A DNA stretch of 62,453 nt, counting the filler, from Hausera hauseri (taxonomy: Eukaryota): NCBI GenBank assembly GCA_046269625.1. It is 13 parts of 13 records of this genome, joined end to end, with 100 filler letters (N's around TTAATTAATTAA, not from the genome) between each part and the next. Parts side by side here need not be neighbours in the genome. Positions count along the whole stretch, not along the records: positions 24,293 to 29,104 come from JBJURY010426586.1; 12 more parts are not named here. One strand, given 5' to 3'. The notes below the pieces were generated by a model. The model was not told where the DNA came from. It made no database searches and saw only the letters and a list, made by a program, of their open reading frames with translations. The position numbers were made by a program, and so were the translations under genes. Of the stretch, positions 1 through 56,301 are shown piece after piece. Each line of letters starts with the position of its first letter. Within the stretch, counting starts at the first letter, position 1.

Positions 1-104
1 CCCCAATCAGCAATCGGGTCCCAGCATTTCTCCCTCCTTTTGGGGTAATCGGGGTCTCAAAATCTTCTGCGGCATCCGTCCAATTTAATTCATTTTCTAT
101 TTTG

Positions 105-2945
105 CATAGCTTATGTACTGGCCTCATATGTTTCCCCATTTAATTTTATCTCCACTACTCTTATGACATTGTCTATTCCAGGGAAGACTTTCGTTATTTT
201 TGCAACAGGCCAGTGATTTAATTTTTCATTCTTCAATAACCACGCCTTATCTCCGATTTTCAACCCTATCTTTTCTCCATTTATTTTCTCATAATTCCTC
301 CATTCGAATAGGCGTTCGTTTCTCCAGCGGTCCCAATATTCACTAACAAATTTCTCTATATACCTTCGTTTATCTGCCAAGCTGCTACTCCCCGTTCCGG
401 TCAGCTCCGACGAGATTTCTCCATTGTGTCCAGCTATTATAAAGTGGTTTGGAGATAGAATGATATCACTTTACTATCATCGGTGACTCTTAGTAACGGC
501 CGACTATTCTTAATTTCTTCAATCTCGATCAATAGTGTTTCAAATTCCTCATCTGTCAATGAACCATCCGGGAGTAATTTGCTCAACGAACTTTTTACAA
601 ACTTGACCATTACTTCATAGACTCCATCTTATTTCGGTATCCTTGAGTTCTCTCCTAAGGCTATATGTGTCGATTTGAAACTCACACACTTCCCTGTTTA
701 CTCCAATAAATGTTCCTCCGTTGTCGGAGACTATCAATGAAGGCCTTCTCCCGCTTATAAAACGTTTGAGTGCTTTTAGAAAGGAATTAGTATCTAAACC
801 TGTCAACATTTCGATATGCACTCTTCGACAAAGTAGACACGTAATTAGGCAGATGTATCTTTTTTCTTGTATTAACCCTCGTCTTTGTCGTGTCTTCAGT
901 GGTCCGGCAAAATCAATTCCAACCTTGTCGAAAGCCTTGAGCGGCAATTGTGTTCTAAATGCTGGTAGTGGTGCTCCTATCGTCCGCATCCCTTTCGCAT
1001 TAAATCCCCTGCAGGTCACACAATAATTTTGGTAAGCCTTGACTAGCTTCCTCATCCTGGGGAACCAGTACTTACTACTTAACTCAGCTACTTGATGGTT
1101 AACTCCCGCCGCGTGTGGTAAATTTAAATGAGTATTATTGGATACTTTTGCTCCCAATTCAACCAAGAGGTCGTTATCAACCGACTACACTATCTCAACA
1201 TCCCCTCGTTATCTAGAACGGGGTTAGATTTTGCTATAACACTCTTATAGCTAATCTCCTTCTTAGACCTCAAATCTCTTATCTATGTTCACAATTCCTT
1301 TTCTTGGTCTTTTTTGATTATTTCCAATTTTGCCTTCCTCCTTAGTTCTGACTCGCTTAGATTATCATTTTCCGCTTTTGGACGATTTTTTCAATCCTTT
1401 GTTTAACCACCCTTTCCCAGCGGGATTCTGTATTTTGTTCAACGATTACTGCATTGCCCTGGCTTTGATGTTCTCCCTCTATCGCAGCGTTTCTCGAAGA
1501 CATCATTGCGAACGCATCTTTTCTCCTTTCCTCATCTTTCGGTTTTGTTAGTTCTTTGCGTGATCGGGCCATTGGTCTTCGGTCCTTCTGAGGAACTCTG
1601 GGCCATTCCACCATTCTATTTTATCTCGTAACTCCTCAACATCCAAACCCCTAGAAAGATAGTCCGCTGGGTTGTTTTCTGACTTTACAATTCCATTGCC
1701 CCCCGATCGTTTCTTCTTGGATAAATCCTACTCTATTCGCAACGAATGTTTTGTAATACTTGCTACAACCTTTTATCCAATACAGCACATTCATACTATC
1801 CGTCCAGTACTGTATATCTTCCTTTTTTATTGCACAGAGTCTTTCTCACTTTTCGTTCCAGCTTGATTTCAAGACAGGCGGCCATCAGTTCTAATCTCGG
1901 TATGGCAACAGATTTTACCGGCGTCACTACTTTTTGAACATATGATCGTCACTTTAACTTCTTTCTCTACATTCGACCTTAAATAAGCGACCGCACCATA
2001 ACCCCATCTTGAGGCGTCACAGAAAATGTATATCTTACTATTATTATCTTGAAAATATAAATACCTTGGCACCTTTATTGTGCTTAGATTTTCCATTCCT
2101 CTCATCAATGTTTTTATTTTTTCACTTATTTCTTTCGGTATCTCTTTGTCCCAATCTATATTCATCATCCACAGTTGTAGAAACATTTTTCTTAACAACG
2201 TGTAACAACTGAGGAAACCTAATGGATCGAACACTTTCGCTAACATGCTTAATAATGTTCTTTTAGTAACCTCCTATTCTTGTCTATTTTGATCCTCAAA
2301 CTCGAATCTATCATTTTCTATTATCCATTTCATTCCCAACGTTTTGGTAACGGCATCAGTCTTTTCCAATATGTTGAATTCCTTAGCTCGGCTCATATCA
2401 GGTATTGTGTTTATTAATTCACTACAATTTGATACCCATTTGTGTGGTTTCATCCCAGCCTTCTCCCATATCTCACTTAACTCGTCGTATAACGAGATAG
2501 CTTCTTTCTCAGTACTGACTGAATCGATACAATCGTTCATGTACGTGGAACACTCTATCGTTTCTACAGCTCTGGGAAATTTATTCTTGTATTTTTCAGC
2601 ATTGTGTTTTGATATCAATTGCGCCAGAAATGGAGAAGCGTTCAATCCGAATACCAACCGATTGAACTCATACGTTTTGAGCTTCCCATCCTTGTACCAA
2701 AGAAATCTCAAATATTTCTTACCCTGTTGTTTTACCTTAATTTGCAGGAACATTTCCTGGATATCGCATATGACAACCCACGGCCGTTTTCTCATCCTTA
2801 ACATAATGTCCACAATATCCAATTGTAACTTCGGGCCGGGGTCTAGGAAATTATTCGGGCATTTTCCTCGATATTTTGAAGCAGCATCGAAAACTATCCG
2901 GCATTTTGTGGTGTCTCTATCGACCTTCATAACCGGGAAGCGCGG
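105..2945 (-). mobile_element. BEL/Pao LTR retrotransposon pol fragment (RT, RNase H, integrase, C-terminal tail), frameshifted
   Basis: CRIVFDAAS, CDIQEMFLQI, FGLNASPFLA, YMNDC (RT); IFCDASRWGYGAV (Pao RNase H); GIDFAGP, SDNGGTF (integrase); WPVAKITKVFPGIDNVIRVV. Confidence 0.93.
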
Positions 2946-5443
2946 CAGCTGTTTCGCTATACCATGAATTAAGTGAGATATGGAAAAGTGCTGGGATGAA
3001 ACCGCACAAATGGGTGTCAAATTCTGGTGAATTAAAGGAAATAATCATTATCAAGGACCGAGCTAAGGAATTTAACATATTAGAAAAGGTTGACGCTGTT
3101 GCCAAAACGTTGGGAATAAAGTGGAAGATCAAAGAGGATATATTCAAATTTGAGAATCGTAATAAGCAAGAGTCAGATGTAACTAAAAGAATATTATTAA
3201 GCATGTTAGCGAAAGTATTCGATCCGCTAGGCTTGCTCATTTGTTACATATTGTTGGGAAAAATGTTTCTGCAGCAAATGTGGATTATGAATGTAAACTG
3301 GGAGGAAAAGATTCCTGAGGAATTGAGCGAGAAAATAAGGGCATAGGTGAAAGGGATGGAGAACTTGAGTACAATAAAGGTGCCAAGATATTTATACTTC
3401 CAAAAAGGTAATGATAGTAAAATACACATTTTCTGCGACGCCTCGAGATGGGGTTATGGAGCGGTCGCTTCTTTGAGATCGATAGTAGAAGGGAAAATTA
3501 AGGTAGTGATCGTATGCTCGAAAGGCAAGGTGACACCGGTGAAATCTGTCACTACACCAAGACTGGAACTGATGGCAGCTTGTATAGGGGTTAAGCTAGG
3601 GAGAAAAGTAAGAAAGACATTGGAGAACAAGAAGGAAGATATACAGTACTGGACGGACAGCATGAACGTATTATATTGGATAAAAGGCTGCAGGAAGTAT
3701 TACAAAACGTTCTGGGCGAACAGAGTTGGATTTATCCAAGAGGAAACGACTGGGAAACAATGGAACTATGTAAACACAGAACATAACCCTGCGGACTACC
3801 TTTCTAGGGGATTAAATGTTGATGAGTTACGAAACAAAAGAGAGTGGTGGAATGGCCCAGAGTTTCTTAGGAAGGCGGAAGATCAACGGTCTGCCCAACC
3901 CAGAGAATTAACAAAGCCGAAGGATGGGGAAAGGAGGAAATATGTCATCACGTTGATGTCTTCGAAAAATAATTCATTGGAAGGAAAATATCGAAGACAG
4001 GATAATGTGGACGACACCGAACAATGTGTAGAATCTCGTTGGGAAGGAACGATTAGACAAAAGATTGAGGAAATCGTCCAAAAGGCAGAAAACGATAATC
4101 TAAGCGAGGTAGAACTAAGAAGGAAGGCAAAATTGGAAATAATCAAGGAAGGCCAAGGAAATGAATTTTGCACAGAGATAAGAGATTTGAGGTCCAAGAA
4201 GGAAATTAGTTATAAGAGAGTTATCGCAAAATCTAACCCTGTTTTAGATGATGAAGGAATACTGAGGTCTGGTACTTGCCTAATAACAACCTCTTGGTTG
4301 AATTGGGAACAAAAATATCCAATAATACTGTCTTCAAAGAGTATCGTAACAAAGCTAATCATCGAGGATACATAGATGAGTTTACGGCAAGCCGCGGGAG
4401 TTAACCACCAAGTTGCGGAGTTAAGCAGTAAGTATTGGTTTCTCAAGATGAAGAAGTTAATCAAAGCCTATAAAAACTATTGTAGGATTTGTAGGAGAGC
4501 AAATGCAAAAGGCATACGAGCCATAGGGGACCCGTTGCCGACGTTTAGGACTCAATTACCACTGAAGGCTTTCGATAAAGTCGGGATTGACTTCGTAGGA
4601 CCAGTGAAAATTCGACAAAGACGTGGGTTAGCACATGAAAAAGGTACATATGTCTAATCACATGTTTACTTTGTCGTGAAGTACACATCAAAGTGTTAGC
4701 AGGTTTGGACACCAATTCCTTTATAAAAGCACTTAAACGTTTTATAAGTCGAAGAGGAAGGCCTTCGTTGGTAGTCTCCGACAACAAAGGAACATTTATT
4801 GGAGTAAATAGAGAGGTGTACTAATTTAAAATCGATACATATAATCTTAAGAGAGAACTCAAAGATACCGAAATAAAATGTATATTTAAACCCCTGCAGG
4901 ACCTCACTTCGGAGGAGTCTATGAGGTAATGGTCAAGTCTGTAAAAAGTTCGTTGAACAAATTACTCTAGGATGGTTCATTGACAGATGAGGAATTAGAA
5001 ACACTATTGATCGAGATTGAAGGAATTACAAATAGTCGGCCGTTAATAAGAGTCATTGATGATAGTAAAAATGATATTATTCTATCGCCAAACCACTTTG
5101 TAATAGCTGGACACAATGGAGAAATCTCGTCAGAGATGACCGGAATGGGGAGCAGCAGTTTGGCAGATAGATGGAGGTATATACATAAATTGGTTAGTGA
5201 ATGTTGGGACCGCTGGAGAAACGAACTCCTGTCCGAATGGCGTAGTTGTGAGAAAATAAAAAGAAAAAATAAAGTTGAAAGTCGGAGATAAGGTATGGTT
5301 GCTAGAAAAAAATGAAAAGCTAAATCATTGGCCAGTGGCAGAGATAACAAAGGTATTCCCTGGAATAAATAACGTTGTAAGGGTGGTTGAGATAAGATTG
5401 GACGGGGAAACCTACAAGAGGCCAGTACATAAATTATGTAAAA
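2946..5443 (+). mobile_element. Second BEL/Pao pol fragment (RT end to integrase C-terminus), a diverged paralog in the opposite orientation
   Basis: FDPLGLL, IFCDASRWGYGAV, PRLELMAA, YWTDSM, NPADYLSRG, WWNGPEFL, GIDFVGP, NSRPL, WPVAEITKVFPG; several stops and frameshifts. Confidence 0.93.
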
Positions 5444-5543
5444 NNNNNNNNNNNNNNNNNNNNNNNNNNNNNNNNNNNNNNNNNNNNTTAATTAATTAAN
5501 NNNNNNNNNNNNNNNNNNNNNNNNNNNNNNNNNNNNNNNNNNN
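5444..5543. other. Artificial contig linker (N-run/TTAATTAATTAA/N-run). Identical linkers at 10349-10448, 14481-14580, 19882-19981, 24193-24292, 29105-29204, 34530-34629, 38971-39070, 44012-44111, 49079-49178, 53830-53929, 58299-58398
   Basis: Twelve identical 100-bp blocks carrying a six-frame stop spacer; sequence on either side is unrelated. Confidence 0.98.
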
Positions 5544-5862
5544 ATAAACTCTGACGGTCTGTATTATGCTAATTGAAAGTAGATGGAAAAAGGACAGTGG
5601 CACAAAGGCCCCCTCCCCCCCGAGGAGAAAAAAATCATGTGGTTCGCGGATGATTCATGGGTTAGGAAAAACGTTGCACAAATGCACGGTTAGTAGGGCG
5701 GAAATAGGAGACACACAGTTATGAAAGTGATACACACAAGCACGCGTACTGTGTGGATTGTAGGTCGACTTAAAAATTTGAATTTCGCGCAAAAATTTTT
5801 TTGGTTTAAATTTCGTGGTAAAAATTTTGTTTTAATTTTGCTTTTGTTGTAATGTGATTCGT

Positions 5863-6050
5863 TGGTTTGTTTACATTTTGAACAAAGGGATTTCTGCCGG
5901 AGATTGGGTTTCACTATTCCCACCCATAGGAAAATAGCTTCCTGTGCTTATCATGGTTTCACTATTCTTACCCCCAATTTGTTTAAATTTTGGTTGTGAA
6001 CAAAAGGAATTTCTGCTGCAGACCGGGTTTCACTATTTCCACCTTAGGGA
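5863..6050 (+). repeat. Imperfect direct repeats (~120-bp period) downstream of pPolB
   Basis: TTTGTTTA..GAACAAA.G.ATTTCTGC...GGGTTTCACTATT.CCACC occurs twice, plus a third GGTTTCACTATT near 5955. Confidence 0.6.
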
Positions 6051-6271
6051 TTAAGTGCTTTTAGGTGCATTCATGTTTTCCTCCCATCGATTACCTTTAT
6101 ATGTGTATTGTTTTCTTAATGTGTGATTATGTAGTAGTATGTTCAAACATAACGCTGTGTCTAGTGTGGGAGATAACGGAAATTGAATGTATTTACTAAA
6201 AGGCTTATTTAACAAAAACAACATAATTATATATTAATACACGATATACAAATAAATCGAAATATTTACAA

Positions 6272-8612
6272 TTAAATACAATAACGTCCGTAAGCAACTG
6301 ATCTGTTTATCTCAATCCACTGCCGTTTGTCGTCGAATGTATCCAATGCTTTCTTTTTTGTGCTGATCGACATAAGTTGGCGACTTTTAGTCCCGATTCG
6401 TTCTTGGTCCACAATGGTCCAACAACCGGATTCATAAGCCTGTAAATAGCTGTCAAATTGCAAGTCTGTCTGCTTGAGATTTACGCTCTTGCATTTGAGA
6501 ACTGGTGTGCATTGATTTTTGAGAGCATAAGATTTTGGCCGTAGAAAAATCCCCTCTTCATACTGAACGCAGCCCTTACCTTCGTCTTTAAATTTCCCAA
6601 TTACAGCTGCGAAGCGAGTCGAGTATAGCGTATCACTCTTGTCGTAGTTAGATGTATCTAGCTGTTCATTAGCTATCATTGCTGGTAACAGTTGCGACTT
6701 TAAGTCAACACCGCGACACTCAAGAAAGAAACTGTCAGTGTCACAAGCAACAACATTAAGTTCGCAATTAAACTGGTGCCTATACGTCTCCAACTCGATA
6801 TAATTCAGCTTATACATCCGTAACTTGGATAGATCAAGTACGGCCTGACAAATGTATGATAGCCTATCTAATGTGACTATATCTTTATAGAGAAGAACTG
6901 CAACCAGATCACCGGCTATTATTATGCTCTCGTGAAACTGAGCCTTACTAGCATATGTGATTAGCATTTTAATATTATTGCACAGTCTCAAGTTTGACCT
7001 ATTCACCAAATTCTCTACTGTTTTGCCATATAAGCTGTTGTTCTTAAGCTTATAAAAGTCTTTTTCAAAAGGATTATTTGCTGCAGCCCTTTTAGCAGTA
7101 TTAAGATCGATGTAATCCTTAAAGACATAACCCTGGTCAAACTCAACGGCCCGATGTACCTTCTCAACTACAGCACCTAACTCGATATACAACTGTAAGG
7201 GCCGATAGTGAACAACATAGTTGGACTTTCGATCATGTGTCAGCAACAATTTTTTTCACTTTGAACCAAGAGGACAATTATTAATTGGGGCTAGAGGCAG
7301 TTGGTCCAACTTATCATGTTTGTCAGCTGGAATGCTTAAGTCAACTTCAAAGACTAAACCTCGTTTTTCCTTAACAGTCAATAAAAGGTAATTGTTGGAT
7401 CAGACTAGTCAAGACGTTCTCATCGTAAATCCAAGTCAGATTCGCAAATGGCAGAGGTTGTGATAAAGCCCAACCGTATAAATTATTTACATCAATATAC
7501 AAAAACTGGTGCTTTCATCTGTTACAACCCTATGCTTATTTACAAAAGTCATGCCACCGCGAATACCCAACTGAAAGAACTGATACATCTCAGGATCCTG
7601 TATAAGCTCAATCTTAGAAGGACTGGTTTTCAATACAGTTGCCAAAGATAAACCGGGAATTGAAAGGAAATTAACCGCTTCTAAACCATCTTGCAACTTA
7701 ACCTCCTTTCTAAACCGTTCAAAGACATCGCCTAACAGGTATACATTAAGTTTCATATAAACTAACATGTAGTCCAAAAGGGAGCTGCAACTATATCTTG
7801 ACCAAACGAGTTGAGCATCTTGATAATCATCATCAGTAACATCATCCCATTTAGCTGGCATCTGTTTAATAGACTGAAAGTCACTGAAAGATTTTGCAGC
7901 AGTGTATTGAAAAATACCTTTTCCCTTAATAATGTCAGAAGGAAAAGCCGACTCAGTAAAAGGATAGCTATCTAAGTTGGAAGCCAAAGTCTTAAGTGAA
8001 GTCAGTAGAAACTGTAACGAGTCGATAAATCGAATAGATACAGACTTTTTGTATGAACACTGTATATTTGCCTGCATGGTTAAAATTTTCTCTGTTGTTT
8101 GAGGAATAACACTCAAATTCCAAGAAGCAAATTTACTTAGTGCATGTTTTAAGATATGATGGAGATCATATCCACGCAAATTATGAAAAATAACAGACAA
8201 ATTATAACTTATCTTACAAGCCAATTTACACTGATTACAAGCTGCGCCTAAGTATTTATCCGTAACATGGCAGTGATCTATAACAAATGTAGTGCCCTGT
8301 TCGTGGCAAAGGTAACATTCTATGGTGTTTTTAAACTAAAACCATTCAGCTGATGTTAATGGGATCATCGGCTTTTTGGTAGTTTCATACCGGGGGAAAA
8401 CTAATGTTTTAACAATTTCCTCTAAACAAGCCAATGACTCAACTATAGAGATTTCACCAATAAATGGCCTATATTTAATACCTGTCCGTGAAACTATCAA
8501 GAGACTTGCTGCAGCAGGCGAATGAATATGCTTGACTTTATCGTCAGGACAAAGAACAGATTCATAGTCAGCATATACGACGAAAAGCGAACTTATTTAT
8601 TTTGCCCAGTAC
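6272..8612 (-). pseudogene. Protein-primed DNA polymerase B (Polinton/adintovirus type), 5'-truncated and frameshifted
   Basis: VVYADYES (ExoI), DHCHVT..YLGAACNQC (endonuclease-VII-like insert), FHNLRGYDLH, FIDSLQFL, GIRGGM, KLKNNSLYGKT, CDTDSF, GKFKDE, LRPKSY, DDKR. Confidence 0.9.
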
Positions 8613-8949
8613 TAAATGAGTTACTGACATTGGGAATAAATCCGCTTATATAAGTTATGATACATATAACAAAAATTTATTTCAAAGTTTTAACATTCAA
8701 TAGCGATCAATCATTTCATGTTTATTACACATTAACATTTATTTTGGTAGATAGAACTGTTTATTTTCACAGGTTTGGAGAACAGGGGTAAGACTTTTAA
8801 TCCGAATTTATATGCCAAATACGACCGAATATGTTCGAATATTTCTCGGATAGATTATGTTATTTTTCATCATCTGTTGTGTTGTTCATTTTGATTTGCA
8901 GTTGACTATGTTGAATGATTTGTCTGAGCACATGCGAGAAAGAGACCAC

Positions 8950-10330
8950 TTCTTGTCACAGTTGTCTCGTGACTGGCAATAACAGAAACGCATCTTCTAA
9001 TGGCTTGAAGTTCTGTTGATAAATATTAGGCCAAAACGACTGGAAACGTTCAAATATGGCAGTTTGTACTTTTGCTCGGTCCAAGCAATGTGATAAACAC
9101 CCCAGCGACAACCAATTCATGAACATGAGGCCTGCATGCAAAGTACAGAAGCTTTTTGCAAAGTCTCTGTTCGAGAAGAACATGTGTCGTTATGTGCACC
9201 TGTGTTGCTTGTTGTTGTGTTGAACCACATCCCAACAATGTCATCAGCAATTTCCCAGAGATTCAGCAAATGAGTGGTAGCAGCTGCTTGTGCTTTTCCG
9301 GTTCCTGATAATGTTTCAGTGATATCAAGTATTTTGGTGACCTCGTATTCACTAACACCCACGGCAACCCCATCCCAGTGAACAACTAAAGGTGGCTTGT
9401 CATTTCTGTGGAATTCGCATGCAGCTATCAATGTATGACCGGTGAGCTGAACGCTTACATTGAATTGTTTGCCGTGAAAGTGCCACTGTACTTAAGTCAT
9501 CCCTGTTAGCTTTAGCTACTGCTGCTGCCAGTATAGCAAACTTTCTGTCACTCAGATTGATTTGATCTAGAGCTGAGGAATCATCAGGACTATGTAGTGT
9601 TTTTTCAGGTAACCTGGATCTTTTGGATTCTACCGCTGTCATCACATTCATCATCATCATCACATTCCGACTTTAGACTTGGCCAATATTGTTTGTAGTG
9701 TGTAGGTATCTCAGACCCCATCTTCTCTCTATCATTCTTATAATCATCACTGTAAGTGTTACTGCCACCAGAAATAATTTTTGAGAGCTGATTTGTGAAA
9801 TTGATTGGTTTTCGCCAGACTTTGTCTGTTTTTCTTTCTGTTTTCGCTCCAGTTCTTTCAGCCTGCAGTTTAATGATCGTTCCTCTTGTTGTTCCAATTG
9901 TTTATCAACACCATCCATCATCATTTTTCTCAATGTTCTCTACTCTTCTAGAAATAACATGTCCTCCTCAATTTTGATCAGTGTCTCTGCATCCTTGTGA
10001 CTTATGTCAAACAACAGTTTCATCTTGGTTTTAAACCCTTTTCACGGCATCGTTGAGTAGCAGAGTCTATGCAATTATGCTTTTTCAAGAGGTTATATTC
10101 ATCAACCAGTTACCTCAATTTTCAAGTGATGTTTTGAGGTAGGGCTGTTGGTATTCGAGCACAGTCCCATATTGACAGTAACTGATCAATTGTAAACTTC
10201 AGGCTTTGAGAAACTGAATTTGCTGTATGTTGATTATAGAAAGTTCTCAACACTTCTTCTGTTGTTGGTAAGACCATTTCTAGGAAGGTAGGTTCTGGCT
10301 GGCCAATCACTCATACTGTAGTTTAATCCT
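8950..10330 (-). mobile_element. Degraded DDE cut-and-paste transposase with a CxxH motif; superfamily not assigned
   Basis: LPTTEEVL..WDCARIPT N-terminus, LVVHWDG, WFNTTTSNTG (FDTT-like), LLYFACRPHVHEL, spread over several frames; abuts the truncated pPolB 5' end. Confidence 0.65.
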
Positions 10331-10620
10331 TGTCTTGTGAGAATTCACNNNNNNNNNNNNNNNNNNNNNNNNNNNNNNNNNNNNNNNNNNNNTTAATTAA
10401 TTAANNNNNNNNNNNNNNNNNNNNNNNNNNNNNNNNNNNNNNNNNNNNGGTCGGTTGAATTGTTTAAAACTATGAATACGGGTGGGTTATAATAAATCAT
10501 TTGTGATGAGACATCACTCACAAAGTAAATGTTTATTGTTTACAATTAAAACAAACCGGTATGAACAAATTTTATATAAATAGCGATGCAATTTCATTTT
10601 ACATTTGTCCTATTTAAAAA

Positions 10621-11107
10621 ATGTCTTTGGAAAACAATTCAGCAGATGACAGTCTCTCAAAAAAGCCACAGTACAGCGAATATTCGCTCAGAAATTTCAG
10701 GTTGTATAATGGATACAACATACATTATCTGCGCAGCGCTATTCAATTGCCATTGATGCAGACGGTAAAAATCAAACCGTCAAAATATGATCTATTGGTG
10801 AAGAAGATTAGCGACGATGATTTGAATACAATGGAAGACACACATAAAATGTTGATAATGACTTGGTGTTGACTAACGATATTCGAGATATATGGTCCAT
10901 TTTTGTCAATTCAAATATAACAGAAATTGTCAAGTCACGTAATGGAGAAACAGCAGCAGCAGTTTTGTAAATGGAAGAAGCTAAAGGCTGGCTAACATTG
11001 AAGCTGAAACGATACAAAGAACTGCACGGCATTAAATCACCAATATGGAAGCTAGAAAGGTTTAGTCTAATTTTACTTACTTTGTTTGTGATCTTAGTTT
11101 ATGATTA
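10621..11107 (+). pseudogene. Small intronless hypothetical gene convergent with pPolB, apparently disrupted
   Basis: TATATAAA about 45 bp upstream of the ATG; 83-aa ORF with coding-like continuation in a shifted frame; AATAAA near 11107. Confidence 0.35.
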
Positions 11108-11289
11108 ATAAATATAATGGGTTTATTTTTCATATTGTTTTTCGCATTAAGTTAAATATATAGATAAATAAAATAATAATAAAGCAAAAACCAAAACACT
11201 GAACAGTGTGCATTATTTGCAAAACACAGATTACAATGAATTGGCTGCAAATATTAGATAATTTTTCAGTATTGGGATTTCATTTCTTT

Positions 11290-13700
11290 GTCTGCATTAG
11301 GTCGTCACCGAAGAAATCATGTATTTTATTACGAACACCAATGTCCGTATGCCCCACCCACTTACGCTTATCACATGATAAAGCGACTTTTTATATACAG
11401 GTTGTGCTCAATTGGTCGGATGATCGTTTGAAACACAACACCCTTTGATTTTCTTTCTCCTACGTCTTCTACCCTTTCATAGACAGGGCGATATCACCGT
11501 GGTTTATTTCCATCTGGGCCAACTGAACTGCTTTTGGGCGCATTTTCGTTTCACACTCCGTCAGAAAACTGTAACACTTGGTGTGCAAAAATATCCATTC
11601 CCGATACTGAACTCGACGTTTCTTTCATCCTTCAAACAGCCGACTTTGTTTGTGTTGGTGTTGCTGTACAATGTATTATTCTGTGGTAGTTGGATGTGTC
11701 CAGTAAACTGTCTGCCATTATTTGTCGCAGTAGTTGTTCGCGACTGACGTTTTTCAGTTTCAAGAAAAACCTATTTGTGTCAGCGGCAATTATATTGATC
11801 TTGCATCCGCCAAAGTTTTACCGATAACGTTACAAATCGAGATACTGCAGCTCATACATTTGTAATTTACTGGGTCCAATACCACCTGTCCTATATAACT
11901 TGGCCGGTCCAGTACGACTTCTTTCCTGTTTAAAAGTACGGAAACCAATCCATGGGAAATATGCATTGACCGTCTGAACTTAGCCTTGCTGGTGTACGTG
12001 ACCAACCGCTTTTCGCTGTTGCATAGACGTACACTGAGACGACTTTGCAAATTCTCTACTGTTTTTAAGTACAGAGAATTGTTTTTCATCTTGTAATAAT
12101 CCTGTTCAAACTTCCTACAAGCTGCATCTCGTTTCTCTAAATTCCGACTGATGTATGCCTGGAATATCGGAGCCTGATGGAATCAGATTTCACCATGTAA
12201 TTGTGTGACGCATACACCCAATTGCATATGAAATTGCAACAGATGCCAATGAATAATATAATTTGATTTGGATTCATGCGTCATAAGAAGCTTCTTCACC
12301 TTCGAGCTAGGCGGACATTAGCTAATTGGTGCGACCTGTAATTCATTCAGAAAGTCATGCAGCTCATCAGGCACCATATGATCGACTTCTATCAGGTATC
12401 CAATTGAGCTGTTTTCTTCCCTGTCTGCTCTAGGCAGATTTTGAACTATTTCGTCCAGATCTTTTCTGTCAACTACCTATTCAAATAAACCGTACGGCAA
12501 CGGTGGTGGAAGCGCCCGGCCATAGAGGTAATTAATATCAATGTATAACAGTAATGTTGTATTATCACTGGTAGCAGCAGAACTAACATGGTGCTTCTTG
12601 ACAAATGTCATGCCGCCACGAATACCAACATCAAATAGCATGTACATTTCTGTATCTTGCAACACCTCTAAATCACCATGATCCAGTGACATCAGGGCCG
12701 ATGCCTAACTCATTTCCGCAGCCGAGCTCTGTCCAAAATCCCTGTGCTTTCTGTCATTCATCCTCTATGATACCTGTCCATCACGATGGCAAGCCTTCTA
12801 TTATCTGAAACCGCACGTACGATACCGGAAAGTCGTATAGAAATATGCCTTTGCTATGTGCAACATGTGTGGAGAACTGTGTCAATGTTAGCGGCACATT
12901 TGACAAGGCATTTACTAGCCTTGTCAATGATTCATTCAGAAATTGCAATGAATCAAGGAAGCGTACATGGAACCGATTTATACGAGCAGACAAAGACAGG
13001 TATTTCTACATAGTAGTTGGAATTATGGATAGTTTTTAGTGCGAAAATCCATTTATTGCCCATTTTAAAATGTTGCGACAATCATAACCCCTGAAGTTAT
13101 GAAAAACCACAGGTAGAAATGGTCGCATACGCCTTGCCAAATTGCACGAATTACATTCAGCTCATAGATATCGACCGGTAAAATGATTATGATCCAGTAT
13201 GAGCCGTTCCTTTGCATCTAACGGTAATATTTTGTGGCACAGGTGACATTCATTGGTGGCTACAAACATCAACGGTTCACATTCATCTGTCCATATCAAG
13301 GGTTTAGTCTTATTATTTTGATACCACGGTGCGATTTTCGTTTCTATTATTGTTTCCAACTGATGCATGAAATCGCTTATGTAGTTCCAACCGTGAAAAA
13401 CGTAGTATTGAGGTTGGCCAGTGGCTTTTATTGGGACAACCAACATACTGACAGCGATTGGAATGTGCTACTGATTATATACATGTAATGTGGTAGAATG
13501 GCTTCAATGTCAGCATATACTACATATGCCGGACTGTTGGATTTAGACCAGTCACTCAACCTGAGTTTCGTTTTGACGAGCAGGACGTACATTGTTGTTG
13601 CCGATGGATTCTGTTTGCATAATGTCAAATATTTTTCCCACATTGTTTCTGACCTGAAACCATGCAGGCATATGGGACACCTGTAGTAGAAAAATGCCGG
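11290..13700 (-). pseudogene. Second protein-primed PolB relic with Zn-finger and endonuclease-VII-like insert
   Basis: CPICLHGF, VVYADIEA, CHLCHK..DHNHFTGRYL, FLDSLQFL, GIRGGM, YIDINYLYG, KNNSLY.KT, RPSYIGQ. Confidence 0.88.
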
Positions 13701-24292: not shown

Positions 24293-27200
24293 TTATTTCT
24301 GTTTTAACAACCCTCTGAATAGATACTACCTCTTCTTTACCATTTTTGTTAATGTATACCGTAGTTGGTGTGGTTCGAATAACCTCATAAGGTCCTCATC
24401 CGGTACGAGTAAGCTTTAATGACGTACCTTTCTTTGCAACTCGATAGTGCACGTAGAAACAATTTTCTTTTTCTAAATCGTGGGGTTTGGCCTTCTTATC
24501 GTATTGTGTTTACACTGTTCTTGATATTCAAGGGTAAGTGTCTTGGCTATGTCCCAACATTTTTGTAATCGCGTTTGTAGGACTTCTGCGAAATTTGGCT
24601 CTAAATTTTCTGGATTTGCGTGACACGAAGTCATTTCTAAGTCCGTAGGTAATACTGATTCACGTCCATACATCATAAAAAATGGTGTAAATCCTGTGGC
24701 GGGGTGTGGAGTAGTATTATTAACAAATTGCGTTCCTTCTAAAAATTTATCCCAATCTTTTTGATCCTTCGATACTACAGTCGATGAAACTCGTATAACT
24801 GTGGCATTCATACGTTCGACCGTCCCGTTGCACTGAGGGTGATATGCGGTAGTAGTTAATCGTTCGATTTCGAAAATTTTAGAAATTTTGTCAAATAATT
24901 CACTTGTAAAATTTCTTCCTCTACCTGTTAGTATTTGATCGGGCGGTCCATATTTGCAAATAATTTTCCATACTACTGCGTCGGCTAGAGTTTCCGCCTT
25001 TTGATCAATTAGTGCGATAAGTTCAAAAAAGTGTGTTAAACGATCTACGCATGTCAAAATATATTTATTATTTTTATGAGTTATAGGTAAAGGTCCTACT
25101 ATATCCATAGACATAGCTTGCATAGGTCTGTCTGGTATGTCGATTGGTTTTAATTCCGCTACATAATTTTTCACTTTTTTTGCTTTGTTGCGCAGACTTC
25201 ATAAGCATCCACCCAATTTTTCACATCGATATAAACGCTTGGCCAGTAATACTTATTCAATAACCCATCTAATATTTTCTTCCATGACATATGTCCTGCT
25301 AAATGTGAATCGTGTTCGGCCATTAACATTTCCGTTCGTAATCATTTTGGAATAACTATCAGTTTTCGTCCGTTTCGTTCGTAATATAGAATATTATCCG
25401 GATTTGATGCATAATATTTGTGTCCGTGTCTCTGTAAGTGTTTCTTTAGTTAACGTGCTTTTGGTCTTTCAACTTGTTCGGCAAATTAGACTATTTATTG
25501 GATAACTTAATCTTTATCTTGTTCTGCAGAAATTCTGATTGTTTTATTTAGTGTTATGGTCTACTGTCGCTCGACTAATTCTTCGAGCTGGGCTCTTTTC
25601 ATGGTCATAATTGCGCTTGTCTTTGTTTTAAGTCTTTATAGAGCGTCTAGGTCGATATGTTTGTTTCCGGGTTTATATTGAAATTCGATATTGTATCGCG
25701 AAATTTCCTCAATCCACCGATTTAATATGCATGTCGGGTTTTTAGCCCGTCCTTTCAATGTTGTGATGGCTTTGTTATCGGTAACTATAATAATTTTCTG
25801 CCCATAAACGTAGACATTAAAATGTCTTAAGGTTTCTTTTACAGCTAGTGTTTCTAGTTCAGTGACTGAATAGTTTTTTCAGCTTTCTTAAGCGATCGTC
25901 CTCCGTATGCAGTTGGATGCTCCAATTCTTAGTCTTCTCGTTTCTAAGCCAATTCCTAACCAATTCCTTCTTTACTCGCGTATGTCTTGATTATGAATGG
26001 TAAGTTGAAATCGGGGTATCTTTATGCTGGTTCACTTGTTAAAATTTTCTTCATTTCGTCGAATGCTTTCTATTCGACATCGGTCCATTTCCATTTGATA
26101 CCTTTTTTCAATAGCCAGTATAACGGTGCATTTATTTTCGAATTGTCTGGTACGTAGATGGCATAATATCCACATAAGCCTAAACAATGCCTTAATTCTT
26201 TCTAATTCTGTGGTTCCATACAATCCGATATTTTGTTTAGTAAAGATTTATCTGGTTTTGACCCTCCTTCTCCGACTATATGTCCTAGATAAGATACAGC
26301 ATTTGGTGCCCACTTACATTTCTTTGGGTTCAGCTTCAATCCTGCCCGTTCTAATCGCATAAGAGTATCCTCGATGTCCTTTAGATGTCCATTTTCTGTT
26401 TCTGATGCTATCATTACATCGTCTAAATATGCGAATGTATGGTCTAATCTTATTAACATATTATTCATTATTCTGGTGAAAACAGATGGGCCAGTTTTTA
26501 TACCGAACGGCGTGACGTTAAATTCGTAAACTCCCTCATGTGTCTTGAACGCTGTTTTATAACGATCGTCTTCTTCCATTTCCACTTGCAAGTAGCCGGA
26601 TTGTAAATCTAGCGTGTAAACCATTTTGATCCTGATAATCTGTCTAGAGCTTCCTTTACTGATGGTAGTGGAAATGAGTCCTTCATCATGAGTGTGTTTA
26701 GGGCTCGGTAGTTTATACAGAATCGATGTTTTTTTGTACCTTTTTTCTTGACCATGAGTATGGGCGAATACCAAGATCGATAGCTTGGTCGTATTATGTC
26801 GGCTTTCAACATATGTTCCACTTCCTTTGTTATTTCAGGTCTTAACAAATGCGGTGGTGGGTAACATTTAGACATCTTTTGTTCTTCCAAGTCAGTTTCA
26901 TTATTGGAGCCAGGTTTCTTTTTTAATGGAATCATTAATCTTAAGGTTTTCGCTCTACCTATGTCTTCTTCATTTTGAGCGATGATCGACTTACATTTGC
27001 ATAGTAATTCGTAAAATTGACAATATGCTTCTGGTAAAAACCTTGTTTAACATGAGGCGGAAATTCGGCATATTTGTGCGGTTATTGTTCAGTTGTTATT
27101 GCCGATACTTTATAAGTCTGACGCAAGGTAGTATTGGCCTATAACTTTGCGGGAGTGGTGCATTATTTACTAATCTGATTGCTACTCTTTCTGTCGCTAC

Positions 27201-27734
27201 TCTTGTCAGAATATTACTAAGTATGATATTTGGATTAACGTCCTCTTGTGGCGCAAAATATATTGGCTGATCATCCTCTTCGCGGATTTGAGCATAAATT
27301 AGCATTTCGGTTCTAGGCGGAATATTTTCATCGACGGGAATCCATACTTCTCCTTGCTTCCTTTCTTTCATTGTTATAATACCTTTCACTGGTCCGATTT
27401 CAAGTAATTTTGCGGTCTGTAACTTTATTGCTATATTAGGTAATTGTTTCAATATGTCGCAACCTAGCACTACATCGTCGGTTAATTGACCCATTAACTG
27501 GACTAAAGCACTCCATTTAAATTTTGGTTTGGATTCTTGCCCGAAGGCTCCTATGCTGCCTGGGTCTGATGATGACGCTGGCTGCAGTTGCTTTCGGAGT
27601 GTCGGTGGTACCGATTCTAATTTGATAAACGATTTCTCTGATCCGGTGTCTATTAATGCATAGACTTCCCGATCTTTGATAGTAACTTTTGTGAAGGGTC
27701 TTCCTTCCATGAATGATCTATAACAACTCGACAC
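24293..27734 (-). mobile_element. Gypsy/Metaviridae pro-pol (protease, RT, RNase H, integrase), frameshifted
   Basis: ALIDTGS; RFCINYRALN, LDLQSGY, PFGIK, YLDD; MDIVGPLP, YHPQCNGTVERMN, TGFTPF. Confidence 0.93.
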
Positions 27735-28284
27735 GTTCTTTGTTTGTTTAATCGAAAAAATTTTTTGTCCGTTTATCGTTATCTTTGGTGAAGAAATAAT
27801 ATTTTTGCTCAGCTGTTTCAGTTATTCGTTAGGGTATAAGTCGTTAACTGCCATGTTATTTGCATTGTTCTGATTAATGATTCTTATACTATTGGATTTT
27901 GGAACGATTTCACTCCTTGTGTTCCCCAGACTGTTGATTTTGTCTCTATATTTTAAGCTATTCTTGGTCAGTACAATATCCCGTGGTCATCTTCCTCTCG
28001 TCGTTGATTAGTAATTTGCATTTTCTTTAATACACCATATAGTTTTGTTCCTTCATAATGTTCTTCATAGCTGAAAGGTTTTTGAGAGAATGCTGATCTA
28101 TAAGACATCATAGATGTTTTGTCATAGTTCTTGTATATCGGAGCCGCTGGCGACATGATAGGTAAGGGTGATCTAATTACTGAATACATGTTGTGTCTAT
28201 TTTGTCTGAGGATCGCATCTCTTCCCTTAGGCTCGTCATTATCGGAGTTATTTGTTGGTGTCGTTGGTTTCTTAGCTTTGTGTT

Positions 28285-29104
28285 TCAATTGAAATATGGG
28301 TCTTGCTCATCGTTTATAATTATAGTAGCCGACATGGCGTTCACATCAGTTTTCCATCGATTGTCTTCGTATGTTTTAAGCATTTTGCCAAACGATGTGA
28401 TAATTGCGGTTAGGATCTTGCAAGAAAATCCTGTTAGCGTAAATATTTCATACCTATTTATAACCGCTTGAATTACCGCCTTTACTAGTTGTACAATGAA
28501 ATAAATTGCTAAAAATACAAATGCAGCTTGTCCAAAAATTAAAAATCTTCCCCATATTTTGCAAAGTATTTCTGTAGTTACCCATTGGTATTGATTTGCG
28601 CAAAGCAAGGATTCCCATTTTGCTTGGTATTGCGTATCATCTACTACTAATGCCATAGCCCGATTTAATTCGTGTGTCCGCTGTCGTGGAAAAGCGAGAA
28701 ATTGCCGAAAAGCTTCGATTTCTTTAGGCCTATAAATGCCTTTCTGAGATATATCCTGGAATTGTCGTCGGTAATTCCTTTTGCTAAATTAGTTCCAGTT
28801 AGTTTTTTAGGGATAATAATAACACCTCCATTGGGTAAGCTAAACCAATCCGTTTCGCCACGTCTAAACATTGGTTCACTCAAACTTGCTTTGCAATCCT
28901 TTAATATTGTAGGTTGTGTTGCGTTGTCTAGCAATACTTTAGTGAGAGGCATGGCTAACCGTGGGGTATTCTGGTAGATTATAGGGCGCTCCTGTATGCA
29001 TCGTTTTTCTTCAGCGTTAATTGGTACATCTATTTTTTCGCATTCATTTGTTAGTAAAACTTCGCCAGTAACCCGACCAAAAATTCCTACTCTCATGGGA
29101 ATAA
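28285..29104 (-). pseudogene. C-terminal half of an env-like glycoprotein resembling chuvirus/herpes-gB-related class III fusogens of invertebrate LTR elements
   Basis: GEV....C..I.V.....C.QE.PI.Y....P..K.L....T...C...PMF....W cysteine pattern; GIY..E....R.FL.FP across a frameshift; W..F..FG followed by a hydrophobic TM region. Confidence 0.7.
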
Positions 29105-29554
29105 NNNNNNNNNNNNNNNNNNNNNNNNNNNNNNNNNNNNNNNNNNNNTTAATTAATTAANNNNNNNNNNNNNNNNNNNNNNNNNNNNNNNNNNNNNNNN
29201 NNNNTGATTGAAAGTGCATCGTCTACTACACACGCCTGTACATGTGCCATTTTGAGATTATTGATTATTGGTGGGCCAGAACCGCCATTTATACACTACT
29301 CCAATTGTGTTCCTTGTCAATAAAATCAATCGGTTAATTATTAAGTAGAAAATAAGACATGTATGCTTAACTTGGAAAACAAGTGTACCGCGCGTTAACT
29401 TGTTTTTTTAGAATTGTTATTTATGTTCACTACAATAAACTTAATTTGATATCTAATGAAAATGTACGATGGGAAACGATTTCAGATTAATAAATAGTAA
29501 AATGGAATTTAGAATTACAGATATTAAATAATTGAATTTGTGATTAATTTGTAG

Positions 29555-29758
29555 AATGTGCTCAACGATGTCATAAAAATGCCGTCTGTATACAAGGAAA
29601 ATGCCAATGTCTACCAGATTTCAAAGGAGATGGAATAACGTCATGTTTCAGTTGTTCTGTTTGTGACAGATATGCGACTTGTGTTCCAAATGAAGAGAGG
29701 TGTGTTTGCTCACCTGGATTCCAAGGAGACGGAAAGATTTGTGGACGAATTGGAGAAC
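29555..29758 (+). CDS. 204-bp phase-1 exon encoding two EGF-like domains
   Basis: AG/GT borders; CAQRCHKNAVCIQGKCQCLPDFKGDGITSC..CDRYATC..CVCSPGFQGDGKIC. Confidence 0.85.
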
Positions 29759-30202
29759 GTACGTTCACAGTTTGAATAGATTTATTTTGGTTCTTTTTTG
29801 AATATTTTAAAACGTTCAGAAATATAATCGTCTTTCCGAAATATTGAAATTTTTTGCTCCGTATACACATTTTGTATTTTGGTAATTTTTATCTTTTGCA
29901 CATTTCATTGCTGTAAAGGAAATTGTTTATTTGACAACAAACTTTGTTCAAAATACCAATAAGTAACCAATTACAAAACTATGATAAATCTTACAAATAA
30001 TAGAACTTAGTTTTGAATAGATCGTTGCACTACAACTACTTTTTTAATCAATCAATTTTTAATTTAAGATTATTGATAAATCACAATCTATTGATTGATA
30101 ATTTAAATCAAAAATATCCACAATTAAAATTTTTTTTACAAAAATTTATCTTACAATTTTTACAAAACTATTCGGCTATTTATATTAAATAATTTTGGCT
30201 TA

Positions 30203-31267: not shown

Positions 31268-32325
31268 TATAACACTTTACATTAGAATTTTTATAACGCG
31301 TGGTTTACCGAAAAAATTCTGTCTAAAAGGTCATCTGATTTCTTAATTGACATTAATTAACTTATGTACTGTATATTCAGAATATTCAGATTTTAGCAGG
31401 TTTAGCTAATTTCCACACTATTTCTCATGGTTCAATTTCTTTTAATCAAACATCATCGTGTGATCTGTCAATATGCGCATGTCAAAAATATGAATTTTCC
31501 CATAATTTCTTTTTTGTACAGTTTTTTCCAATTATTCTTTGGTTACTCCACTTATACGGCTATTTTCGGTGATCCAAATTATGTGCCACTGTTACGAATT
31601 TTTAAATTCGGAATAGTGTATCGATGGTAAAATTATGTAAAACAGATTTACTCTAGGAGACCACTCAAGAAAGGGCGGATCCTTTCCAATGACAGAAAAT
31701 GAAATGAAGTGAAAAACAAATTCGTTTAAATGTTCCTTTTTCATGCTTTTTATCAATAATTAGTGGTACCGAAATATTTTTGGTTAACTTTAATCCTAAT
31801 TTAGGCATTTACAAAAATAAAGAAAACATACATCATTCTATATCATATTAATTTCAAAGCAAATCAACGAAATCTGGTACAGAAAAGCATGTTAATAATG
31901 TAGTACATTTGGTGTAACATCTTTTGTGAGATCTTTATTTCCATCACTGTAACTAACTAATATTACGAAGAGAACAATAATCGTTTTACCATTACAAAGA
32001 CAGACTTAATACATTGAAGATGACTGAACACCCAAGCAGAAAACTCTGTTTATAAATTGTTTACATTATCAAACGTATTCATCATCTTTCAGCATTAGTT
32101 TGAGAGGAAAATGTAAGAAATATCAATCATTTTGTGAAATTTCACAAATTAATTAAAATGATGGAGATTACCAAATTGATAAAATATACAAATTATTTTG
32201 TGTTAATTTTTGTTGATAAGAACGAAAAGACATAAACATACTATTAATGTTATTAGCATGTGTTTCTTGAATGTGTTATCAAATTTGTTTTACAGTAAAT
32301 GCAATACAACAATATTTTACTATAG

Positions 32326-32529
32326 AATGTCCTCAAAGATGTCACAACAATGCAATTTGCGTCTTTGGAAATTGTCGATGCCTTTCAGATTTTGAAGGAA
32401 ATGGCGTATCATCATGTTTCAATTGTTCTACATGCCATGTCAATGCTGAATGTTTGGTTGATGAAGGTCGATGTAATTGTTTACCTGGTTTCATCGGAAA
32501 TGGAAGGACGTGTACAAGAATTGGTGAAC
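32326..32529 (+). CDS. Paralogous 204-bp double-EGF exon
   Basis: AG/GT borders; CPQRCHNNAICVFGNCRCLSDFEGNGVSSC..CHVNAEC..CNCLPGFIGNGRTC. Confidence 0.85.
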
Positions 32530-33209
32530 GTGAGTTTTTCACTTTTTTAATCATTTTATTCATCAAGTAAGATTGCTCGACAATGTTTTGGGAATTGTTT
32601 AGTTATAAACGTAAAGATTGACTTATTTTATATTAGGAACACAAATCTTAGATGAGAAAATTTAGTTTCAAGAAAACAACTTTTATATTTTTTACTACGG
32701 TTTTCTTTTTTGTTTTATTATTTCAAAAAATTCATTTTGAAATATTAATTTAAAACTGAACTTTATGATTCACGTGTAAATATATTAATTATTTATTATT
32801 TATTGTAATTGACATAGATTATTGGTGCAGAAAAAATATACTGCCAGTTTCTGAAACACTTGCAAACATTTTCATAAATTATTTTTAGTTCCAAACACAA
32901 TCTCATTTCAAGATCATTGCAATTATTTATTTAACCTCCGATCCAAACATAATAATTTTTAACGTGATATACCATAATCCTTTGTACAAAAATCTAACGT
33001 GATACATTAACATCATTCATTAATTATCACACTTCATGAAACATAGAAAATAATTTTACTAGCCAATATAAAACGAACTAAGCATCTATTACTAATATCT
33101 AACAGTGTTTGTAAAATTGGTAATATTGCTTTCGCACCAATAAACCGTGTTAATTACAATAAATAAGTAACATATTCACGGGTGGATCAAAAATTGTTAA
33201 AAAATTTTA

Positions 33210-52100: not shown

Positions 52101-52362
52101 GGGTACTATAGATCCATTATGTGTAAGGTAGAAATCGGAAGAGTGGAATAAGATGGAAATGAAGTTACGAATTGTTGCAGTGTAAATGCAATGAAATGAG
52201 TGTGTGTTTATTATTTAGAAAAAAGAAGATGGATAAGAGATAGTGTGCTCGGGGGCGTGTTGTGGGGCTGAAGCTAAAGGCGCCATCTGACCAACTGGCG
52301 CAGGGTAGGCCGCCGGGACCTCAGCCTCGCCGCACCGGGTCCCAAATTTCGGGGTAACCGAT
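49179..52362 (-). mobile_element. Second CsRn1-like Gypsy internal region, degraded
   Basis: Gag homologous to 41339-42064 (CYYH..C..C and CIYH..C); FLIDTGA; IDLAKAYHQ, MPFGLQNA; LTTDA. Confidence 0.9.
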
Positions 52363-52599
52363 TTCTCTGCTTAAGGTATGATGAAGTGCACCGCTGACGG
52401 AGTAACAAGTGGATATGCATCGCATTCTATATGCAGCTTTTTTGCATTTACAACAACGACGGCTAGGCCATTTACATATACTATTGCCTTTGGTAATGAT
52501 GCAGCAACGCCAGGTGCGGTTCCATACGGAACAAACAGAGTGACCTCTTCGCCGGGTTTGAGCACAACGATCATACAATGTGTAGTTATTATACCCACG

Positions 52600-52705
52600 G
52601 ATATATTCTAAACCCTGATGAAATGTTTGCCACTTCTGTAGATAAATTGGAAGAAAGTCGTTAATCTCATTTCTATTTGTCTCTTGCTTTATTGACTCAA
52701 TGTGC
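52600..52705 (-). pseudogene. Cullin N-terminal repeat-like fragment
   Basis: HIESIKQE...DFLPIYLQKWQTFHQGLEYI resembles cullin repeat 1 (L..Y...W..Y..G..Y). Confidence 0.45.
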
Positions 52706-52712
52706 CGTTGAG

Positions 52713-53194
52713 TCAAGCGAAGTGTATCGGTATATAACGACTCGGCATAAACTTCACTTCTATCTTTTTTGCTGCATACCTTTCATTATCTACGCTAGGC
52801 GTACCCCAATATGCATCATAAATAATAGCCTTTGTCCTTAATGACATAAGTGCATATCCAATATTATTACCGTGATAATAAAAATTGACAATGTAGAAAT
52901 GAATATTACCTTGTCCACTCATCTGGCTATTTCATTGCTTCCCTGATCAGTTTCTCTTCCGATTAAGAAGTGTAAAAGTCCATGAGTATTCCTTAATACA
53001 GATGCTGCAAACTCCTGAGAAACACAAATTAAACTCTGGCCGTTTACGTCCACAATTTGATCATCAGAATGAACATTGTCGACATTTTCGAAATGAGTGG
53101 TTCGGAAATTGTATGAATCCGTTAAAAAGTCCTCGAAATCAGGCGCATTTGTAACTAATTTTTGTAGAAATACAAATGCGTGGAGCATTTTCAA
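52713..53194 (-). pseudogene. Possible MULE-transposase-like fragment following a Ser/Asn-rich ORF (53139-53672)
   Basis: FYIVNFYYHGNNIGYALMSLRTKAI resembles the MULE YAL...KT motif; the catalytic DGT motif is not seen. Confidence 0.35.
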
Positions 53195-55498: not shown

Positions 55499-56205
55499 AT
55501 GGTCTACAAAATTCACTATTACAATGGAATATTGTACTCATTCTTCGGTCGCTCCTTACAATCGGTATTTACCGAAGCACAACGATTTAATTCAAATTCC
55601 AACATTACTCTAAGCTTCATTAAAACACCTGAGACAACTAGACATTTGGGATTTTCGCACTTTTCATGGTCTGAAAATGATTCTCAGGTGTGGATTCACA
55701 GTGGTGCTAGGACAGTATCACTCGACATGTCTGACACACCGGTAGCCATTCTTACCAAAGTTACGGGTGCTACCACCTTTCTATGGCATACAATCAACGA
55801 CGGAAGTGGTCACACTGCTACAGTACCTGAAGCGCTTTTCACGACAGACATACCCGGTTTCTCACTTCTCGACTCACCGCTACCTCTGATGGATTGTACT
55901 GGCTACGCAATTCATTTAGAAATGCATGTTTATATCATTGTTTGGTTTCCGCACCTGTGTCTAATCATACTCCCATTGACTTTTTCCAGCACTGCGAACA
56001 GACGGACGAAGTTTCGTTCATTAGAGATCGGCCCTTAAAATTGTACTCACAATATCAACTTAATAATCACATAGCCAACAAGGAACAGAGCATTACAGTT
56101 GTTTGCAAAAACCCCGTAACAATGGCTATTAGCAACAGGCGACCGGACTTAGTAATTATTAGTGTACGCATTGGTATGAATTCTACTGAGCCTAGTAAGG
56201 TACCG
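55499..56205 (+). pseudogene. UBR4: Intronless internal fragment of a UBR4/pushover-like E3 ligase
   Basis: YWL..S...PIDFFQH....DEVSF....L.LY...Q...I......ISN......VRI.....K.P is collinear with the UBR4 PIDFFEH region as I recall it. Confidence 0.65.
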
Positions 56206-56277
56206 AATCATACTGAGGATAAAATTCTTAAATCAGCCATTATGAAATATGGCACAAATCAGTGGGACAGAGTGACC
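56206..56277 (+). pseudogene. CDC5L: CDC5/Cef1 Myb repeat-1 fragment fused in frame to the UBR4 fragment
   Basis: TEDKILKSAIMKYGTNQWDRV compared with CDC5L [21 protein letters not shown]. Confidence 0.75.
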
Positions 56278-56301
56278 AATGGAGAAACATTATATACAGG
56301 A

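Follow-up and report, generated by a model that had tools for sequence, protein, structure and literature searches.

The window, i.e., the whole stretch of DNA analysed here (62,453 nt, Hausera hauseri assembly GCA_046269625.1), consists of 13 pieces of 4–5.4 kb each, joined via N-TTAATTAATTAA-N spacers. Because it is a chain of spacer-joined pieces, those flanking a spacer provide no genomic context. The env-pol element is located on the minus strand of the 4.8 kb piece at 24293–29104. A Pfam scan of 12 ORFs, eight of them from this piece, revealed PF24664 (in two frames), RVP, RVT_1, RT_RNaseH and rve, in this order on the minus strand. This bears out the order described in an earlier note on this DNA: an env-like gene, a linker and then protease, reverse transcriptase, RNase H and integrase (PR-RT-RH-IN). 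The features of the piece are the following:

28665–29104, minus strand: part of the env ectodomain, gB/chuvirus-type and putatively gB domain IV-like, cut by the piece end (PF24664, identity to relative P0123, weak structural matches)
28285–28788, minus strand: C-terminal part of env with one predicted transmembrane segment at about 28540–28480 (PF24664, hydrophobic peak, 89 relatives)
27700–28284, minus strand: decayed coding linker, read as a putative env cytoplasmic tail leading into the protease (few breaks, no repeat, [ILV]YP motif, multicopy depth)
27441–27707, minus strand: aspartic protease, catalytic motif at 27656 (PF00077, E 4.5e-6)
27099–27440, minus strand: post-protease spacer domain, also present in fused relatives (tblastn of P0122, P0125 and P0213 reaching 27165)
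26205–27046, minus strand: reverse transcriptase with frame changes and stops, YxDD at 26429 (PF00078, E 9e-30)
25639–26204, minus strand: RT connection and RNase H, with stops (PF17917, E 1e-13)
24293–25638, minus strand: tether and integrase (zinc-binding region, core and C-terminal part), cut by the piece end (PF00665, E 2e-13; tblastn to 24312)

The Pfam match of RVP spans 27099–27821, and the protease domain begins about 600 nt after the env stop. The piece end at 29104 leaves only the C-terminal ~40% of env, so that nothing 5′ of this, whether the env N-terminus, gag or a 5′ LTR, can be seen; the opposite end (24293) truncates the integrase. The part of env at 28285–28788 lies in a different frame from the upstream part, and hence the env gene is broken once. 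The minimum number of frame breaks is one in env, two in the linker (601 nt), none in the protease region, four in RT (901 nt) and ten in RH-IN (1701 nt), and each region's count is below all 300 shuffles. In addition, the integrase departs from the conserved catalytic triad at one position. As a decayed copy, the window element cannot encode the protein. The order PR-RT-RH-IN in the Pfam scan, with RT and integrase of gypsy type and nearest pols that are also gypsy-type, places the element in Ty3/gypsy (Metaviridae), and the position of env 5′ of pol, in the same orientation and with no LTR between, is that of GAG-ENV-POL gB-type errantiviruses.

In two public runs, 13,476 and 1,141 contigs, mostly 85–99% alike, fell on the piece, and contig depth was present in all 30 of its bins, env and linker included. 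Env and linker included, the piece belongs to an old and large repeat family. No contig of these runs spans the whole piece, the longest among the matches listed being 275 nt. Some contigs, derived from other copies, extend past the end of env into the linker (record 6, 28258–28483), and deletion joints crossing from env into the linker were found at 28239–28508, 28253–28509 and 28261–28397. Rfam gave no match, and no RNA dataset containing the stretch was listed.

The other pieces contain BEL/Pao pol fragments, protein-primed DNA polymerase B fragments, RING and MATH genes and EGF-like ORFs, a gene content in keeping with an animal assembly rich in repeats. Positions 1–5443 form a large inverted duplication of a BEL/Pao pol region, with arms 74–92% complementary. 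The polymerase B fragments (PF03175) at 6272–8335, and a 72–77% repeat common to two other pieces (11493–12342 / 58735–59551), are Polinton-like. Short adjoining MATH and RING ORFs, TRAF-like, lie in an AT-rich piece (22636–23835), and two related small EGF-like ORFs share one piece (29548–29775 and 32271–32570). Host-gene fragments are found amid retroelement debris at 52321–52782 and 55831–57105, namely a cullin piece (E 5e-5) and a Myb-like stretch (E 7e-3), which presumably resembles CDC5L.

Env and its predicted fold

Both parts of env match the profile PF24664 (Monjiviricetes_fusion). The match at 28288–28788 covers profile positions 469–611 of 653 (E 1.9e-21), and that at 28668–29102 covers positions 368–444 of 653 (E 1.9e-6; 26.6 bits, just under the cutoff of 27). 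The upstream env ORF is 33% identical to residues 500–597 of the full-length relative P0123 (pairwise E 2e-13). An AlphaFold2 model of P0123 (mean pLDDT 75.5) was compared with the PDB using Foldseek, which returned 115 matches at E ≤ 0.001 with TM values of about 0.31–0.41; all listed rows were gB, the best being herpesvirus gB (E 1.9e-14). A profile of 33 env relatives against the PDB had 33 sequences matched, all gB, with weak E-values (0.016–0.9). The window env fragment is too partial for its own fold to give a significant match: in its model (pLDDT 70) the top match, gB domain IV, is not significant (E 0.47; Z 3.1, rmsd 3.2, 68 residues aligned) and is tied with unrelated chains. Thus, the structural check of env proposed in the earlier note gave a gB fold for the relative P0123 and weak matches for the window's own fragment. 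The PF24664 matches, together with the fold predicted for P0123, support the claim of that note that the gene is gB/chuvirus-like, and env can be regarded as a class III (gB-like) fusogen of the chuvirus type.

Two relatives carry additional domains next to env. Residues 9–70 of P0123, directly before the env signal segment, weakly match Bcl-2 (E 1e-3, below the cutoff) and are possibly an anti-apoptotic cargo. In P0180, immunoglobulin domains precede the PF24664 env in one ORF, which may represent either a host-gene fusion or a gene-model artefact.

Relatives and phylogenetic placement

A search with the env C-terminal ORF revealed 89 relatives among 1.84 billion representatives. In the 16 that were Pfam-scanned (the top 13 and three further long ones), a protease follows env in the same ORF in 11, and it does so in nine of the ten best matches. 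Over the whole list, a protease-like motif follows env in 12 of the 81 relatives that aligned; among the weaker matches, most are envs of about 650 residues that stand alone. When cluster mates and a further search are included, nine proteins carry env-PR-RT-RH in a single ORF, and eight of them continue to the integrase; several are closely related, and the nine therefore do not count as independent cases. A cluster of 20 members includes 15 listed ones of 4,026–4,029 residues each. In the relatives of the flatworm-like group, the three genes form one ORF of 2,600–4,800 residues with an internal signal sequence. A CCHC knuckle was found before env in 6 of the 19 proteins checked. P0126 has a Pfam zf-CCHC domain before env, P0139 a weak Retrotrans_gag match in the same place, and both P0132 and P0139 begin with a Gag-like region. 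A hydrophobic segment directly precedes the env start in seven relatives.

Relatives P0122, P0125, P0210 and P0213 are collinear along the piece in tblastn. In the window, 299 codons lie between the env anchor motif and the first protease motif, against 129–389 in relatives; from the protease to YxDD the figures are 409 and 403–423, respectively. The protease ORF gave no match to longer proteins among 549 candidates, and no loci of env or P0217 were found in viral contigs, nor of P0122 in prokaryote genomes, so that these searches yielded no LTR-bearing DNA of a relative. The integrase matched a single distant locus in metagenome contigs (31% identity), which was left out of the analysis.

Several relatives show features of their own. 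The fused polyproteins P0125, P0126, P0210 and P0216–P0219 contain 3–7 aspartic-protease-like motifs each, some after the integrase; C2H2 fingers or ankyrin repeats lie between the protease motifs in some, and several end in extra hydrophobic segments. P0122 is deposited as a Flavobacteriaceae MAG protein, yet it is the gag-env-pol polyprotein of an animal retroelement, and it is probably a contamination of the MAG.

The window shares 31–37% identity in env and 41–45% in RT with the closest relatives compared. The pol comparison set comprised 120 of 162 matches, limited to 2,000 residues. Among the proteins compared, the top 28 RT/RH BLAST matches (nine clusters) are all of the fused type, by a small margin (203–215 bits vs. 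197 or less). The FastTree phylogeny of RT/RH and integrase (92 sequences, 460 columns) placed the window as sister to the fused relatives with a support of 0.93, and IQ-TREE with 35 sequences united them at 84/59, the N-terminally cut P0057 being included. In separate trees of RT and integrase, the window did not fall with the fused clade, and the summed RT-RH tblastn scores and best integrase matches favour env-less pols. Hence, of the RT phylogeny suggested as a check in the earlier note, the combined pol tree agrees and the separate RT tree does not, and the pol placement of the window is weak. The env tree, built from 58 sequences and 238 columns, puts the window on the side of the fused relatives (69/95), but outside the fused clade proper (94/79). 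The sequences compared suggest, with moderate support from the trees, that the window copy is a divergent, long-branch representative of a distinct lineage.

The linker and alternative arrangements

The linker (27700–28300) can be crossed on the minus strand with two breaks, compared with a mean of 6.8 in shuffled sequences, and none of 300 shuffles was as low. It is coding-like and basic and looks like a decayed reading frame; its two breaks in 601 nt match the break density of RT and RH-IN, as expected from decay. The linker had no match in Pfam or Atlas, the best phmmer E-value among the proteins compared was 0.07, neither a CCHC motif nor another Gag signal was detected in it, and no repeat of it occurs elsewhere within the window. 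These results agree with the previous observation that neither an LTR nor a recognisable Gag lies between env and protease. At about 190 codons, the linker would be small for a capsid.

The motif [ILV]YP occurs at 27839, in the protease frame and 61 codons before the protease motif. It is present in 12 of 18 fused relatives, at 29–55 residues ahead of the first protease (background 4.8%), and in none of 12 env-less pols. As the motif was picked post hoc and the relatives are kin, it lends modest support to the reading of the linker as a putative env cytoplasmic tail.

The linker was also considered as an LTR, and this was rejected: there is no second copy, and the depth in its bins is not above that of pol. 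In run X1, the summed contig depth, a crude measure, was about 3,000–18,000 in the linker bins and about 6,000–40,000 in pol.

Env could precede pol in separate ORFs, with pol reached from gag, past env, by read-through, frameshifting or splicing. In the window copy, env is directly followed by a stop and the frame shifts within the linker, so that a single ORF is presumptive for this family. The main text of Chary & Hayashi (eLife 2026, PMC13524379) speaks of three ORFs; the terms "polyprotein", "single ORF" and "fused" are not used in it, and the figures may show ORF continuity. However, the closest intact relatives are uninterrupted, and the break density of the linker matches that of the decayed RT and RH-IN. 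We ascribe a slight probability to this arrangement.

A tandem, nested or misassembled junction, which would bring the env of one element next to the pol of another, is unlikely, its probability being slighter still. Such an origin would be compatible with the decay of the copy, with a short, repeat-rich piece that no contig spans and with the weak placement of pol. However, the linker contains no LTR, repeat or rise in depth, and the protease is not preceded by a gag, although an ordinary second element would require one there. Taken separately, env and pol lead to the same set of fused relatives, the spacing of env, protease and YxDD fits these relatives, and contigs from other copies run from the env end into the linker. 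An env located 3′ of the integrase had been named as the sign of a junction; the relatives instead carry env before the protease in one ORF. It is this shared ORF, together with collinearity, the non-LTR linker and the multicopy state of all parts, that makes a junction artefact unlikely.

The least probable arrangement is ENV-GAG-POL with the linker as a short divergent gag, since, although this order with a short gag was found in two oribatid mites (PMC13524379) and the linker is coding-like and basic, the linker has the small size and lacks the CCHC, Pfam and Atlas matches as described above, the four Oppia rows seen in that source are F-type envs, the relatives have Gag before env and the tail motif of the fused relatives lies at the end of the linker.

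A Gag-Env-Pol element and known systems

We consider it very probable that the piece is an internal part of a decayed, high-copy Ty3/gypsy (Metaviridae) GAG-ENV-POL element with a gB-like class III fusogen, belonging to an invertebrate animal. Env upstream of pol appears to be the native layout, probably within one polyprotein, as supported by intact natural relatives. The (gag)-env-pol layout and possible polyprotein put forward in the earlier note are thus supported, with the upstream position of gag taken from the relatives. Gag, LTRs and a single ORF are presumed for this family, as are the topology and cleavage given below and infectivity.

An active element would consist of one ORF encoding Gag, an internal signal, the Env ectodomain, a TM anchor, the tail (linker), PR, RT, RNase H and integrase. 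Gag would be made in the cytosol, after which the internal hydrophobic segment may direct the ectodomain into the ER, where signal peptidase would free it from Gag. The env anchor would halt the transfer, leaving the tail and Pol back in the cytosol, and the element's own protease could then free the Pol enzymes there. Pol would reach the particles tethered to the Env tail, not fused to Gag, and Gag, Env and Pol would be produced in equal amounts. The threading steps, the equal amounts and the recruitment of Pol via the Env tail are modelled on general membrane-protein biogenesis. A broader reading seems doubtful to us, namely that the element may represent a deep lineage of its own among single-ORF Gag-Env-Pol retroelements, in an animal group with no recorded layout of this kind, with a group-wide polyprotein threaded through the membrane in the manner of flaviviruses and alphaviruses, Pol packaged via the Env tail and extra proteases cutting the polyprotein.

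Nematode endogenous retroviruses (NERV) of chromadorean nematodes reportedly possess a continuous gag-env-pro-pol ORF. As far as the accessible part of the literature goes, they share the flipped env-pol order with the window; the window copy, in contrast, is interrupted. The flipped order in nematode metaviruses is attributed to Sacco et al. 2022 (J Gen Virol 103:1739), as cited in PMC13524379, and the nine nematode env rows in the supplement of the latter were seen by eye to be without the motif common to the window's relatives.

The premise that env lies 3′ of pol holds for most errantiviruses, but GAG-ENV-POL gB-type Ty3/gypsy elements have already been published. The accessible part of PMC13524379, the sole match in a literature search on gag-env-pol retrotransposons, describes this order for gB-type errantiviruses of Nematoda, Bryozoa and Platyhelminthes, which are not monophyletic, and the env-before-pol layout is therefore already known in three phyla. 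Six Schmidtea mediterranea elements (Smed_errantivirus_1–6), with 1–215 copies, are tabulated there. The window resembles these and the bryozoan and nematode elements in the gB-type env 5′ of pol, the order PR-RT-RH-IN and the multicopy state, as far as that source covers them; in contrast to Smed_errantivirus_1–6, the window copy is decayed and branches outside the clade of its closest relatives. A short motif of all six Schmidtea env rows shown in the source is present in 12 of 16 fused-group proteins and in none of 27 other long envs, so that the nearest relatives of the window can be called Schmidtea-like. The link between the window and Schmidtea is indirect, as the motif region is absent from the piece. 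With regard to the platyhelminth Schmidtea-type (C1a) clade, the window appears in a sister position (pol 0.93 or 84/59, env 69/95), with domains I–II, the site of the C1a cysteine pattern, outside the piece.

A chuvirus-type glycoprotein within an LTR retroelement is also a feature of the Anakin elements, as the consulted part of their description indicates (Dezordi et al. 2020, PMC7642597). These, however, are BEL/Pao elements, whereas pol in the window is of gypsy type and includes an RVP protease, and no Peptidase_A17, characteristic of BEL/Pao, was found by Pfam among the ORFs of the piece. In its accessible portion, PMC10084718 (Dezordi et al.) reports no clear capture of a chuvirus glycoprotein by gypsy in arthropods. 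The matches listed for the planarian Burro literature contain nothing on env, and the part of PMC12440569 available contains nothing on gene order. The layout itself is not new, and the feature is real, correctly read and of a known kind. The window adds a divergent, very high-copy family to the few invertebrate retroelements that carry env between gag and pol, and the single-ORF relatives raise the question of how Pol, set apart from Gag by a fusogen that is translocated into the ER, gets into the particle.
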